A stretch of DNA of 43,036 nt from Shigella phage SFN6B. The first letter of the stretch is position 1. Each line of letters opens with the position of its first letter. This document shows, in pieces, positions 1 to 20,182 of the stretch. Under the pieces are notes generated by a model. It made no database searches, had not been told where the DNA came from, and saw nothing but the letters and a program-made list of their open reading frames with translations. The translations under genes were made by a program, and so were the position numbers. The stretch lies in the sequence record KY684082. One strand, written 5' to 3'.

Positions 1-14
1 CTCCCCCCCCCCCT
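1..14. repeat. Terminal homopolymer tract CTCCCCCCCCCCCC, also present at the right window end; putative terminal-repeat or assembly junction
   Basis: The window starts ct+c(11)+tg and ends cccct+c(11); the shared ~13-nt string sits at both extremities. Confidence 0.5.
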
Positions 15-245
15 GTAGTTGGGGGGCTTTTCCTTTTGTAGGTTAGTATTTATAAGCACTATTCCAGGTGCATATATGAAGTTATCTGCAAGTGGGTACA
101 AGAGAAGCGCCTGGAACATCACAAGGACTTCTCCCCTGCGCAGGTGTATACCTGAACTCGAAATTTGTTAGACTCACGCGAGGCCCTCCCTCACCCTCAA
201 CGCGCCCAATTGCCCCCATAGGGGGTGTCTAGCGTATAAATGAGG

Positions 246-256
246 GGGGGGGGGCC
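246..256. repeat. Poly-G tract (11 G) followed by GGCCGTCTAG-type short direct repeats
   Basis: Read directly: gagggggggggggccgtctagacgtctagatggccagctgtgggccgtctaggg. Confidence 0.6.
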
Positions 257-390
257 GTCTAGACGTCTAGATGGCCAGCTGTGGGCCGTCTAGGGCGGAC
301 CAGGAGGGCCGTAGAAGCTCGCTGCGCGGCCTAATGGCTATTGCTAGTGCTATCCTATGCCTATCGCTATAAGCTCCTTGTAGGGCCGCT

Positions 391-433
391 GGGAAGCTCT
401 GGGAGGCACTAGGGAGGCACTAGGGAGGCACTA
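391..433. repeat. Tandem repeat, 11-bp unit GGGAGGCACTA x3 plus one degenerate copy
   Basis: Read directly: gggaagctct gggaggcacta gggaggcacta gggaggcacta. Confidence 0.85.
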
Positions 434-482
434 AGTGGGCCGTGGGGACGCGCTCCGTCTTGCTTATTTTGTGCGCCTATTG

Positions 483-545
483 CGGGCTTCCATTGTGGGC
501 TTCCAGTGCCCGCATTGTGGGGCCATAGTGGGGGCCATAGTGGGC
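483..545. repeat. Cluster of short direct repeats (GGGCTTCCA x2, CATTGTGGG x2, GGCCATAGTGG x2)
   Basis: Read directly from the sequence; overlaps the probably spurious ORF 435..671. Confidence 0.75.
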
Positions 546-561
546 CGCCCAGTGCGCCGTG

Positions 562-590
562 GTGCTATCGCTAGTGCTATCGCTAGTGCT
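562..590. repeat. Tandem repeat, 12-bp unit GTGCTATCGCTA x2.4
   Basis: Read directly: gtgctatcgcta gtgctatcgcta gtgct; related GTGCTA(T/C)CCCTAG copies near 664-680 and 961-990. Confidence 0.8.
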
Positions 591-717
591 TTACATTGTG
601 CCGATTATATGCTACTCTGCGCGCTCCCCACTGAGGCGCACTTCCACTACCCACCACACGCCGTCACCTAGTGCTATCCCTTCACCCTTACTTTCATTCG
701 AAAGCTAATAAGAAATG

Positions 718-734
718 ATGTTACAGGAGTAGGA
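718..734 (+). promoter_or_regulatory. Candidate phage-RNAP promoter, copy 1 of exact 17-mer ATGTTACAGGAGTAGGA (left non-coding end)
   Basis: Exact 17-mer shared with 20183..20199 and 32788..32804; ends in ...GAGTA|GGAG, resembling the -1/+1 region of T7-family promoters. Confidence 0.4.
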
Positions 735-890
735 GGGTTTTAGGGCACTACATACATACTACTTACTACTACTCACTAGTATCCCCTAGTAATGCCCTAT
801 ATTACGACCGTAGGGAGTAAGCATTACCTACACAGTAACTGCATTGCTCCGTGTCCTTTCACTTCGTACGGACACTACGCACTGCTTTAT

Positions 891-940
891 GTAGTATTAG
901 ATAGTGTTAGGTAGTATTGGTTAGTATTGGTTAGTGGTGG
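891..940. repeat. Degenerate tandem repeat, ~10-bp unit (GTAGTATTAG / GGTTAGTATT) x5
   Basis: Read directly: gtagtattag atagtgttag gtagtattgg ttagtattgg ttagtggtgg. Confidence 0.75.
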
Positions 941-1201
941 CGAGCAGTGGCTACAGCTAGTAGCTGCATAGTGCTACCCCTAGTGCTATCCCTAGAATAG
1001 AAGCATTGGCTAAGTATTTGCCCCGCTTACCCCTTTTGCTCTCAGTGATAAAAGTTTAAAAAAAAGTGCTTGCTTCTTTTGGTTAGTTAGCGCTATAGTT
1101 CAATCACCGGGAGGCACTGAGGCGCTGAACGGGGTAGAGTCGGGAGACTCCACCGGATTAAAGCTAGATAGTGTGAAGGGTTAGATACTCGATAAAAAGA
1201 G

Positions 1202-1230
1202 TTGACACCGCGAAGAACATAGGCTAGATT
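1202..1230 (+). promoter_or_regulatory. Sigma70-like early promoter (TTGACA - 17 bp - TAGATT)
   Basis: Perfect -35 hexamer TTGACA, 17-bp spacer, -10 TAGATT (4/6); lies in the non-coding leader upstream of the first ORFs. Weaker candidates near 1070-1099 (TTGCTT-18-TATAGT) and 1274-1302. Confidence 0.5.
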
Positions 1231-17706: not shown

Positions 17707-20175
17707 ATGATTAGCGCCCTGAATACGGTTGTAGTACCCGAGGAAGCACTGGTGGAACGCCAGTTGGAGCTTGAAGAGACTTACAAGATTCGCGGCATTG
17801 AACGTGCTCGCAAATTGATTACCGACGCTCTACAAAACGGCGGGATTATGAACCTGCCTATGACTCAGCGCATGCTAACCTCTGCGTACGACGTGGCCTC
17901 TGCAGCCATTGAGGAAATGCGTAACACCAAAGCCCCGGGTATTGGTGGAAAGTACCGCCGATTCCTACGCTTAGTCCCCTTGGATGTCCTAACTACTCTG
18001 AGCCTGTGCACAATGTTTGAGGCGTTCAGTGTTGCTCCTGGTGAGTCCGCCAGTCGCCGCCAAACAGCTCAGGCAGTGATGTCCGCTCTGGGTAGGAATG
18101 TACAGTCAGAGCTGCTGGCCCTACAACTACGTAATGTTGCCCCAGCGTATATGGACCGGGTATATGAATACCTCACTGAGCGCCGTACTAAGTCGCCTAC
18201 GCACATTCTGCGTACGCTCCGCGCCAGTGCTGAGAACGTGCACTATGGGCATGAGCCTTGGACCAACGCTCAGAATATTTCTGTGGGACGTCTGCTGTGT
18301 TCCGCAGTGTTTGAGACAGGGCTGTTCCAGTGGAAGACTGGTAGCGGGAACTTGAGTATGCTCTATCCCGCAGATAATGTTATGGAAGCATTTCAGCAGT
18401 TAGTGGAATCTGCTGACACTGTAACTATGAAGCCTCCGATGCTGGTGCCTCCGGTGCCACATACTACACTGTGGGATGGTGGCTACCTCACCCCAATAGA
18501 TAACCGTGGGACGTACCACAACTCACACATTGACCGCGCCAGACTGCGTGAAGTAGCGGAAGCATTTAAGTCTGCGGACGGTATCAAGAAGGCACTTAAT
18601 AAGGCGCAGGAAACTCCTTATCGCATTAATAAGCGAATACTGGAACTGGTACAAGAAGCACGGGCCTTAGGTATTGGTGTAGGTATGCCGCGCTCAGTGC
18701 CAGAGCCGAAACCTGAGTGGTACTTAGATGGTGTACCAAAAGAGAATTACACCGAGGAGGAACTCGACCGCTTCGGAGAGTGGAAGACGCGTATGTCCTT
18801 ATGGTACAGCGCAGACCGTAAGCGTGTGTCACAATTACGTAGCCTATTGACCACGCTAGAGATGGCAGAGGAATTCAAAGATGAGAAAGCCCTGTACTTC
18901 CCAACCTGTGTGGATTGGCGGTACCGGCTGTACTTCAAGTCCTCACTGCACCCCCAAGGTTCTGATTTGCAGAAGGCACTTCTTGAATTCGGACGAGGTA
19001 AACCTCTGGGAGAGAGAGGGTTATTCTGGCTTAAAGTGCACGTCGCTACCTGCTTTGGTTATGACAAAACCCTATTCGAAGACCGTGCAGCTTGGGTTGA
19101 TGCAAACTTTGCAGAGATTGAGCAGCTCGCGGATTCCCCTTTTGATTGCCCTGCTTTTACCTCCGCTGACAGCCCTTGGTGCTTCCTGGCAGCCGCTATT
19201 GACTTGGTTAATGCTGTACGTTCTGGATGCCCAGAAGAGTACATTAGCCGAATCCCGGTTGCTATGGATGCTACAAACTCAGGTGGGCAGCACCTCTCAG
19301 CGCTCCTGAGAGACCCTGTAGGCGGACGCCTGACGAACCTGTACTGGGAGGGTAACGACAAGAAAGCGGATCTGTATATGGACGTGAAGCGCCGTACGGA
19401 CGAGAAGGTGATACTGGACCTGGACAAAGAGGATTTCGTTATCCAGAGCACGTACTGGAGAGAGAACGAAATCACTCGAAGCATGACCAAGCGTCCTAGC
19501 ATGACCTACTTCTACAGCGCCACGGTGCGCAGCTGCAGCGACTATATCTTTGCCGGGGCCTGTGAAGAGGGGTATGAAGGAACGGATACGCACAGTCTTT
19601 GGAACCTTTCCTGCTACCTGGCTCCCAGAATGCGCAGTGCTATTGAGGAAGCTAACCCGGCAGCAGCAGCAGCTATGGGGTATCTGCAGAACCTCGCTAG
19701 GCGTGTACCTGCTAGTCAGCATCTGCAGTGGAAGACTCCGCTAGGTGGGCTGGTGATGAACCGGTACTCTCAGCGAGAGGAGGTACGTGTACGTATTGAC
19801 TGCATGAACCTGTCCGCCGTGCTGGTACACAACCGTGACTTTAAGACCTGTAATAAGCGCAAGGCCGCCTCTGGTATTGCCCCGAACTTTGTACATAGTC
19901 TGGATAGTACGCACTTGATGATGGTACTCTGTGCGGCAGAAGGTCTGGATATTGTCCCGATTCACGATTCGATGGCGACTCACGCGGCTGATGTAGATGC
20001 CCTGCACCGACATATCCGTGAACAGTTTGTGAAGCTGTACGAGGAGCACGATCTTCTGGGGGATATTACCAGGGCAGCTGCCGAAGCAGGGGCAGACCTG
20101 ACGGACCTGGATATGCCTGCGGTTGGTACTTTGGACATTCGGCAAGTGCTAGAATCTCCGTTCTTCTTTTCATAA
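17707..20175 (+). CDS. Single-subunit DNA-directed RNA polymerase (T7-like)
   Basis: 822 aa; motifs VAMDATNSGGQH, RSMTKRPSMTYFYSA, APNFVHSLDSTH, PIHDSMATHA parallel T7 RNAP motifs A, B and C; GGAG upstream. Confidence 0.95.
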   Translation: MISALNTVVVPEEALVERQLELEETYKIRGIERARKLITDALQNGGIMNLPMTQRMLTSAYDVASAAIEEMRNTKAPGIGGKYRRFLRLVPLDVLTTLSLCTMFEAFSVAPGESASRRQTAQAVMSALGRNVQSELLALQLRNVAPAYMDRVYEYLTERRTKSPTHILRTLRASAENVHYGHEPWTNAQNISVGRLLCSAVFETGLFQWKTGSGNLSMLYPADNVMEAFQQLVESADTVTMKPPMLVPPVPHTTLWDGGYLTPIDNRGTYHNSHIDRARLREVAEAFKSADGIKKALNKAQETPYRINKRILELVQEARALGIGVGMPRSVPEPKPEWYLDGVPKENYTEEELDRFGEWKTRMSLWYSADRKRVSQLRSLLTTLEMAEEFKDEKALYFPTCVDWRYRLYFKSSLHPQGSDLQKALLEFGRGKPLGERGLFWLKVHVATCFGYDKTLFEDRAAWVDANFAEIEQLADSPFDCPAFTSADSPWCFLAAAIDLVNAVRSGCPEEYISRIPVAMDATNSGGQHLSALLRDPVGGRLTNLYWEGNDKKADLYMDVKRRTDEKVILDLDKEDFVIQSTYWRENEITRSMTKRPSMTYFYSATVRSCSDYIFAGACEEGYEGTDTHSLWNLSCYLAPRMRSAIEEANPAAAAAMGYLQNLARRVPASQHLQWKTPLGGLVMNRYSQREEVRVRIDCMNLSAVLVHNRDFKTCNKRKAASGIAPNFVHSLDSTHLMMVLCAAEGLDIVPIHDSMATHAADVDALHRHIREQFVKLYEEHDLLGDITRAAAEAGADLTDLDMPAVGTLDIRQVLESPFFFS

Positions 20176-20182
20176 AAATTTA

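Follow-up and report, generated by a model that had tools for sequence, protein, structure and literature searches.

The 43,036-base window analysed here (sequence record KY684082) is the complete genome of Shigella phage SFN6B, a KP34-like podophage of the genus Drulisvirus (Slopekvirinae, Autographiviridae), and its positions 240-1000, a non-coding stretch dense in short tandem repeats, are the end-processing and early-control region of this T7-family phage, a known kind of feature. The region takes in most of a predicted direct terminal repeat (DTR) together with ~545 bp of non-coding DNA that precedes the early host promoters. On balance it is probably a T7-type concatemer junction joined to a left-end control region, in which unique blocks would hold the specific signals and the repeat arrays would serve as redundant, phased accessory DNA for junction processing. 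DTRs, the phage promoter, and early promoters are already known for Drulisvirus, while no description of the arrays was met in the Drulisvirus literature found.

Approximately 250 Klebsiella and Escherichia drulisviruses match the window, the nearest being the E. coli phages ZH5, Hope, Minorna, and IK_ECO1 (gene identity 86-91%). All genes lie on the + strand, cumulative GC skew climbs throughout the window, and the ~1.4 kb at the left, ahead of the first coding sequence (CDS) at 1576, is regulatory and non-coding. A preliminary description of the sequence took the region to be the genome's left end, but window position 1 is not a physical end, and the left end is predicted instead at base 189. 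The first 13 nt (1-13) are identical to the last 13 nt (43024-43036; CTCCCCCCCCCCC), and the assembly is circular and was opened within a poly-C tract, with the DTR collapsed to a single copy. This tract, whose true homopolymer length is uncertain, forms the stem of a terminator-like hairpin after the tail-spike gene.

The terminal repeat was placed by comparison with five relatives whose DTRs are annotated or derived (fHe-Kpn01, 222 bp; KP34, 216 bp; KpV475, 243 bp; SAA231, 267 bp; JKT6, 311 bp), the 216-bp KP34 repeat being derived from the prefix/suffix identity of its two ends. All five start at window 188/189 and end at 455-457, with a common right boundary at which ...GCGCTC is followed by CGTCTTGCTTATTTTGTG, and their differences in length are due entirely to indels in internal arrays. 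The ends of fHe-Kpn01 are blunt and were determined by PhageTerm, restriction mapping, ligation, and Sanger sequencing (PMC7291057), and many independent records start exactly at window 189 (CCTCACCCT...). Homology thus predicts the physical ends of SFN6B between bases 188 and 189 and between bases 455 and 456, which puts window 1-188 at the right end of the virion molecule.

Identity to the window, profiled over 29 relatives, is blocky. It is high at 141-235 (0.76-0.93), 441-480 (0.70-0.79), and 681-760, which holds the phage promoter (0.86-0.94), and also at 341-360, 561-640, and from 1021 onward. Low values lie under the perfect arrays (0.21 at 261-280, 0.38-0.52 at 381-440, and 0.32-0.61 at 481-560), with the exception of the GTGCTATCGCTA array (562-590), which falls within a conserved block. 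The preliminary description proposed that the arrays encode terminase recognition or pausing signals; the conserved sequences are instead the unique cut-site blocks at 141-235 and 441-480, and most arrays occupy the least conserved stretches.

The block at 141-188 precedes the DTR in the concatemer, and the right DTR copies of KP34 and KpV475 are preceded by the same context. Immediately inside the predicted left end, the palindrome CCCCCATAGGGGG at 213-225 lies at offset 25-37 from the terminus, compared with offset 26-38 in T7. It is exact (TGCCCCCATAGGGGGT) in ~21 of 30 Drulisvirus sequences and carries single-base variants in most others, and 32 of 62 columns are invariant in an alignment of the tips of T7 and three drulisviruses. 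The literature found assigns no function to this palindrome. The left tip is also conserved across subfamilies as nCTCAC...ACG...CCCCCATAGGGGGT..CTA (189-231 compared with T7 1-44, SP6 1-40, and phiKMV 1-40). A scan for CCCCCATAGGGGGT in IMG/VR returned many unrelated contigs among the matches listed and was used only to retrieve both KP34 ends. At the right boundary, the heptamer ATCTGTT is absent near 455, and the conserved T-rich block CGTCTTGCTTATTTTG sits there instead.

Tandem Repeats Finder (TRF) returned 11 rows for the region, and the arrays cover 249 of its 761 bases. In 500 dinucleotide-preserving shuffles, 4.0 ± 9.0 bases were covered (maximum 46) in 0.19 rows, and 204 windows of the same size in the coding genome had a mean of 8.8 bases in arrays (maximum 101). 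Every repeat listed in the preliminary description was recovered at its position in this non-coding DNA. CTAGTGC occurs five times against 0.05 expected, GCTATC occurs five times forward and never in reverse, and CTAG reaches a density of 26/kb in 189-456 and 13/kb in 457-1060, compared with 3.1/kb in genes. Base autocorrelation along the stretch peaks at lags of 10-13, 20-23, and 32-33 without a 3-nt rhythm, and neither the array periods nor the indels between genomes are multiples of 3.

The arrays turn over quickly while their unit families persist. Copy number was compared with ZH5, the closest usable genome (~91% identity in genes), there being no near-identical isolate in the phage collection. 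Such a comparison among isolates had been proposed in the preliminary description, and it does reveal turnover, in the form of indels of 12, 24, 30, and 79 nt within the arrays, together with retention of the unit families; unit-sized indels and the absence or replacement of arrays in relatives count against the arrays being specific signals. Identity of the region to other drulisviruses is ~70-81%, compared with 86-91% in genes. All 27 relatives that span 189-1060 carry 4-13 TRF arrays, together amounting to 104-337 nt, whose periods are 10-13 nt. The same families recur in the same alignment intervals (GCTATCCCTAG/GCTATCCACTG, CTAGTGGGCCA/GCCTGCCTAGT, ACTCACTAGG(C/T), TAGTATTGG(C/T), and CTGTGCGCTCA), and arrays of the CCTAGTG, GCTATCCCTAG, and TAGTATTGG families are found in all 27. 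Every genome has 5-10 copies of GCTATC on the + strand and 0-1 on the - strand. The extended consensus from 214 instances is cCtaGgGCTATCCCTaGt, and these are concentrated within the DTR and directly after it, and also at 640-680 and 960-1000. By comparison, the equally non-coding stretch 1101-1240, which is under promoter constraint, has arrays in only 5 of 30.

Individual arrays have separate histories. The GGGAGGCACTA array is lineage-specific, a conserved single GGCACTAGG having been triplicated; ZH5 also has three copies, Minorna has one, and KP34 and fHe-Kpn01 have none. The TAGTATTGGY array has 3-5 copies in most relatives and is shortened in ZH5. In five relatives (L019, L027, L037, L039, and L041), an open reading frame (ORF) of 132-142 aa with an HNH motif (YHVHHCDSNRLNC...H), likely a homing endonuclease, replaces the DNA homologous to ~830-1020; it lies downstream of the left-end phage promoter, ahead of the early host promoters, and displaces the hairpin at 851-875, the 10-bp array, and the GCTAYCCCTAG pair. 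Because arrays are missing or replaced in viable relatives, no single array is essential. The GGCCGTCTAG repeat segment, with a conservation of 0.21 at 261-280, is absent from KP34, KpV475, and fHe-Kpn01.

Within that segment, the palindrome GTCTAGACGTCTAGA at 256-271 (TRF period 8) holds the octamer AGACGTCT (259-266), a perfect MetJ met-box, with a tandem register of 8 bp; the met-box-containing palindrome is also found in ZH5, Minorna, and JKT6, and a variant, AGACGGCT, in EC22.5-2. The match of AGACGTCT to a MetJ site is most likely due to chance, the segment being absent from many relatives such as KP34, KpV475, and fHe-Kpn01.

The main functional element of the region, overlooked in the preliminary description, is a promoter for the phage RNA polymerase at 716-731. 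The sequence recognised by the KP34 enzyme is T(A/G)ATGTTACAGGAGTA, and TGATGTTACAGGAGTA at KP34 nt 475-490 was as active in vitro as two TAATG copies (Lu et al. 2019, PMC6834552). In SFN6B, the exact KP34 16-mer occurs at 716-731 and the TAATG form at 20181, 6 nt past the RNA polymerase gene, and at 32786, and nowhere else; this three-site layout is the same as that of KP34. Judged by its sequence, the promoter very probably directs rightward transcription from G732 across the right half of the region, as the counterpart of T7 phiOL. Only 13 of 30 genomes have an exact copy of the left-end promoter, the others having TGAAGT(T/A)ACCGGAGTA, TGATGTTACACGAGTA, and similar sequences. This variation may track the two subgroups of RNA polymerase specificity loop that Eriksson et al. 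2015 described, or the left-end copy may be decaying in some lineages.

Host promoters complete the layout. Accepted early promoters lie at 1202-1230 and ~1274, the former (TTGACA-17-TAGATT) being listed for KP34, SU503, NTUH-K2044-K1-1, and F19 (Eriksson et al. 2015). Two further candidates lie upstream: one at 590-618, whose -35 is invariant in 30 of 30 sequences and whose extended -10 (TGCTACGCT) is kept in 28 of 30 with a variable spacer, and TTGCTT-18-TATAGT, not called by the scan, with a -35 that matches at 3 of 6 positions. The start of the phage promoter transcript, GGAGGGTTTTAGGGCA (732-748), forms an imperfect inverted repeat with TGCCCCGCTTACCCCTTTT (1018-1037), which lies just before the early promoter, and both arms are invariant in relatives. 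The coordinates of all features are collected in Table 1.

Table 1 Features of the left-end region of SFN6B and of the genes that bear on it, in window coordinates.
Feature	Position	Strand	Remarks
Terminator-like hairpin CCCCCTGTAGTTGGGGGG with T-run, 3' of tail-spike gene	9-36	+	In the virion at the right end, ahead of the right DTR copy
Conserved unique block directly left of left-end cut, ending ..TTAGACTCACGCGAGGCCCTC	141-188	+	Identity 0.79-0.91 over 20 relatives
Predicted DTR, 267 bp	189-455	+	One copy in collapsed assembly; by homology to five relatives
Left terminus	189-231	+	Alignable with first 43 nt of T7; contains palindrome CCCCCATAGGGGG
Poly-G(11)	244-254	+	G-run in all relatives, length varies, sometimes interrupted
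GGCCGTCTAG repeats (253-262 and 284-293) with ACGTCTAG (263-270)	253-293	+	Variable segment
Conserved GCTAT-family block within DTR (GGCTATTGCTAGTGCTATCCTATGCCTATCGCTA)	335-372	+	Identity 0.83; GCTATC instances cluster here
GGGAGGCACTA x3.0	401-433	+	TRF; copies 100% identical
Conserved T-rich block across right DTR boundary (GCGCTC / CGTCTTGCTTATTTTGTG)	441-473	+	Place of T7/SP6 class II pause heptamer ATCTGTT
Post-DTR run, ~11 units of the CCTAGTG / GCTATCCCTAG families	479-604	+	TRF; period 11-13 bp
ATTGCGGGCTTCC x2.4	479-509	+	TRF; missed in the preliminary description
GGGGCCATAGTG x2.2	519-544	+	TRF
GTGCTATCGCTA x2.4	562-590	+	TRF
Candidate host promoter TTTACA, 17 nt, TGc-TACTCT (extended -10)	590-618	+	Putative; below consensus-scan threshold
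Strong phage RNA polymerase promoter TGATGTTACAGGAGTA	716-731	+	Predicted start G732, rightward
G-less ACTAC/ACTCACTAG array	746-778	+	Relatives have 2-5 copies of ACTCACTAGG(C/T)
ACTACTTACT x3.1	747-778	+	TRF; missed in the preliminary description
Hairpin / inverted repeat GTGTCC-N13-GGACAC	851-875	+	88.5% of cells paired
10-bp array TAGTATTGGY x4-5 (TRF x4.4 at 892-935)	887-935	+	Inside C-less 55-nt stretch 886-940
GTGCTA(C/T)CCCTAG x2.2 (TRF 969-995), GCTATCCCTAG family	968-996	+	Absent in ZH5, L007, L020, L028
A-rich tract, then candidate early host promoter TTGCTT-18-TATAGT (1070-1099)	1040-1099	+	High conservation; outside the region
Early sigma-70 promoter TTGACA-17-TAGATT	1202-1230	+	Scan; same sequence annotated in KpV475
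RNA polymerase gene	17707-20175	+	PHROG match
Small terminase (TerS), 100 residues	37244-37546	+	PHROG match
Large terminase (TerL)	37546-39402	+	PHROG match
Tail spike, last gene	41218-43014	+	PHROG match

The order of elements matches that of T7: a tip with CCCCCATAGGGGG, the DTR, a boundary motif, arrays with 7-nt cores every 11-13 bp, a phage promoter, and host promoters. In the T7 record, the DTR is 160 bp with CCCCCATAGGGGG at 26-38, ATCTGTT directly follows it at 161-167, CCTAAAG arrays with a 13-nt period lie at 174-245 and 282-340, phiOL is at 405, and A1-A3 are at 498-750. These arrays, to which the post-DTR run at 479-604 of SFN6B corresponds, we take to be the left-end short-repeat (SRL) arrays of Dunn and Studier 1983. 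SFN6B differs in the length of its DTR (267 bp), in its array unit (CCTAGTG/GCTATCCCTAG for CCTAAAG), in its boundary (CGTCTTGCTTATTTTG for ATCTGTT), in having another group of arrays beyond the phage promoter, and in the distance from the tip to the first host promoter (~880 bp, compared with ~500 in T7). At the T7 concatemer junction, ATCTGTT serves as the class II pause/termination signal, and pausing there is said to be needed for concatemer processing, as reportedly found by Lyakhov and co-workers in 1997 and by Zhang and Studier in 2004. Nothing in the literature found on the left- and right-end short repeats (SRL and SRR) of T7 assigns them a function.

The SP6 record has a DTR of 174 bp, CCCCATAGGG at 29-38, ATCTGTT across the boundary at 174-180, and 12-nt CCTTAGT(G) arrays at 219-350. 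SFN6B resembles it in its post-DTR arrays, whose CCTAGTG unit is one base from CCTTAGT(G), and in the TAGTGGCTATC element; SP6 differs in having ATCTGTT on the boundary and a shorter non-coding leader, with no detectable homology beyond the motifs. The phiKMV record has an annotated DTR of 414 bp, directly followed by CCTTGCCTCT, with CCCCCGTAGG at 26-35 and weaker 10-13-nt repeats. The array cores of T7 (CCTAAAG), SP6 (CCTTAGT), and the KP34 group (CCTAGTG) are 1-2 bases apart. Within the genus, KP34, fHe-Kpn01, KpV475, SAA231, JKT6, ZH5, and Minorna share the termini, conserved blocks, promoter, and unit families of SFN6B, and differ in array copy numbers and some whole arrays.

SFN6B has a short DTR with fixed ends (by homology), a T7-related tip, arrays at helical-turn spacing (380-440 and 479-604), and a phiOL-like promoter, and it lacks ATCTGTT at the right boundary and arrays to the left of the right DTR copy. 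The analogy to T7-like phages drawn in the preliminary description is thus borne out as regards arrays beside terminal repeats, which the T7 and SP6 records, analysed with the same repeat finder, confirm, and the ends inferred at 189 and 455 adjoin or fall inside the region; the assignment of specific signals to those arrays is not supported. Left of the right DTR copy, window 1-188 has no arrays besides the poly-C tract, and so no equivalent of the T7 SRR. When 300 nt upstream of the left cut were compared (homologous to 43000-43036 plus 1-188), 12 of 27 relatives had 11-12-nt arrays (GGGCACTGCTT; TGTACTGGGGC x5.2) within ~100 nt left of the DTR, a counterpart of the T7 right-end short repeats.

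On the favoured reading, recognition, cutting, and any polymerase pausing in concatemers would rest on the conserved unique blocks. Each of the two predicted cut sites is embedded in such a block, the left one being homologous to the T7 left tip including CCCCCATAGGGGG. The CTAG-rich phased arrays at 380-440 and 479-604, flanking the right-hand cut, would act collectively as redundant, easily bent multi-site DNA that helps a protein oligomer to assemble, load, or wrap DNA at the junction. A phage or host factor that binds the arrays, as the preliminary description suggested, is possible, and by analogy with lambda cosB and SPP1 pacL/pacR the likeliest candidate would be the small terminase. 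Iterated sites at lambda cosB and SPP1 pac serve small-terminase recognition, whereas in T7-type packaging the terminal repeat must also be duplicated, and T7 itself requires its RNA polymerase. In SFN6B, iterated sites lie on both sides of the predicted right-hand cut, and like those of lambda and SPP1 they are several short phased sites beside a fixed cleavage; the resemblance is one of possible working only, the SFN6B units being shorter and far more variable.

Arrays of short strand-specific motifs (GCTATCCCTAG/CCTAGTG, TAGTATTGGY, and ACTCACTAGG), iterated about once per helical turn (10-13 bp), fill the spaces between elements and characterise the genus and the wider family. Under the same model, replication slippage keeps altering their copy number, each is individually dispensable, and the arrays would be maintained as a class rather than copy by copy. 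Changes in CTTGCTTATTTTG and the tip palindrome would, by contrast, be lethal or severe. The arrays to the right of the promoter (746-996), for which nothing supports a role in packaging, may be a spacer before the early promoters.

Several observations weigh against this model. The DTR has been placed by homology and is present once in the assembly; the right-boundary block is dissimilar in sequence to ATCTGTT, and we know of no pause signal for KP34 RNA polymerase. SFN6B is without arrays left of the DTR, where they occur in just 12 of 27 relatives. Among 30 relatives, 17 have 1-3 substitutions in the left-end promoter, which makes its importance uncertain. Several arrays are missing from viable phages, and their natural loss counts against a strict requirement for any one array. 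To our knowledge, no experiment ties any array to packaging, in Drulisvirus or in T7, and the orientation bias and shared units could be explained by repeated tandem duplication of an inherited sequence.

The last point leads to the chief rival, a real if rather unlikely possibility, in which the arrays have no function and are slippage products in the sole long unconstrained stretch of the genome, selection acting on the conserved blocks and perhaps on the overall length of the spacer between the tip and the early promoter. Perfect copies (100% identity in three arrays) speak of recent duplication, arrays sit in the least conserved stretches and differ from those of ZH5 by unit-sized indels, viable relatives lack them or have the HNH gene in their place, and most TRF hits in coding DNA are multiples of 3, as would be expected if slippage occurs throughout the genome and selection filters its products. 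Slippage alone fits less well with the recurrence of the same unit families in the same places in 27 genomes whose surrounding DNA is at ~70-75% identity, with 5-10 copies of GCTATC held under strict strand bias and helical phasing, with arrays of near-identical motifs kept at the equivalent position in three other subfamilies, and with the rarity of arrays in non-coding 1101-1240 (5 of 30), promoter-constrained though that stretch is. The persistence of motifs, strand bias, and phasing across the genus, and of near-identical motifs across subfamilies, makes pure neutrality less likely. A bolder proposal, which we regard as doubtful, is that the short-repeat arrays beside the DTR are one ancient homologous element of Autographiviridae, with T7 CCTAAAG, SP6 CCTTAGT, and CCTAGTG/GCTATCCCTAG as diverged versions of a strand-specific, helically phased loading array that co-evolves with the packaging machinery. 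On this proposal the unit also occurs just 3' of the shared tip palindrome, and the loading factor would be the small terminase, possibly with phage RNA polymerase paused at the boundary block.

Other explanations fare worse. A secondary replication origin has been proposed at T7 phiOL, which is annotated at the equivalent place, and the repeats might likewise be iterons and an unwinding region at an origin that the left-end phage promoter primes; the promoter at 716-731 is indeed followed by a strongly strand-skewed stretch of lower GC content (G-less at 746-778) and direct repeats. This is improbable, the primary origin of T7-type phages being elsewhere, the downstream arrays being deleted or replaced in ZH5 and the five relatives with the HNH gene, and the promoter being mutated in many. 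An iteron-type origin would have units of typically 17-22 bp, an adjacent initiator gene, and an AT-rich element; here the units are 10-13 bp, no gene is adjacent (first CDS at 1576), and GC content is 0.49-0.57.

We think it very improbable that 732-1060 is a structured leader RNA transcribed from the phage promoter, in which C/A/U-rich 746-778 would pair with G/U-rich 886-940. The G-less 33-nt stretch at 746-778 is followed ~110 nt on by the C-less 55-nt stretch at 886-940, to which it is partly complementary, and the minimum-free-energy fold pairs 755-770 with ~905-920. Conserved pairing between the two stretches is unsupported, and the fold of 732-1060 has z-scores of -1.33 and -0.39 on the two strands, 11 of 100 shuffles folding as well as the former. 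RNAalifold on 25 relatives gives a covariation term of -1.55 kcal/mol and keeps almost none of the structure, a search of the stretch against Rfam at E ≤ 1 returned nothing, and the segment is deleted or replaced in several relatives. In place of a stable covarying fold there is only the 6-bp hairpin at 851-875 with one covarying pair (seen as C-G, U-A, and A-U); three relatives have another hairpin in its place, and five lack it. An assembly artefact of homopolymers and low complexity at a mis-joined contig end is scarcely credible. The window does open in poly-C with a 13-nt overlap and has a G11 run at 244-254; homologous arrays in dozens of independently sequenced phages, including experimentally mapped finished genomes, refute an artefactual existence of the arrays, although exact copy numbers in SFN6B could still be off by one unit.

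Further candidate readings were rejected. Hidden small genes were discarded because none of the ORFs at 435-671, 559-708, 792-914, 271-372, and 92-232 matches a PHROG family, the sequence shows no 3-nt periodicity, and the indels are not multiples of 3. A CRISPR array would consist of 24-50-bp repeats alternating with unique spacers of similar length, whereas the units here are 8-13 bp, head to tail, and spacerless. Nor are the repeats explained by the "phage promoter" motif predicted in 2015, AGCCTATAGCATCCTACGGGGTGCTATGTGAA (Eriksson et al.), which lies outside the region at ~1796-1828 and was inactive with KP34 RNA polymerase in 2019 (PMC6834552). That motif is a hairpin in the intergenic gap after the first gene, for which a terminator or an RNA processing site are candidate roles.

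In practical terms, these analyses yield a corrected map, with ends predicted at 189 and 455 and a collapsed DTR, and hypothetical proteins called here by some pipelines in relatives are probably spurious. Anyone engineering or rebooting Klebsiella or E. coli drulisviruses for therapy must leave the junction blocks intact, whereas trimming of single arrays is probably tolerated. Four Autographiviridae subfamilies share one layout (DTR, boundary motif, phased arrays, and phage promoter), with nearly the same units in three. This likeness of array units and boundary architecture across subfamilies is the part most worth pursuing, and it makes the question of what the T7 short repeats do approachable by comparison and by deletion. 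If the arrays do load the packaging machinery, this would give a function to sequences unexplained since the T7 sequence of 1983, for which the hundreds of Drulisvirus genomes provide a natural copy-number test set.

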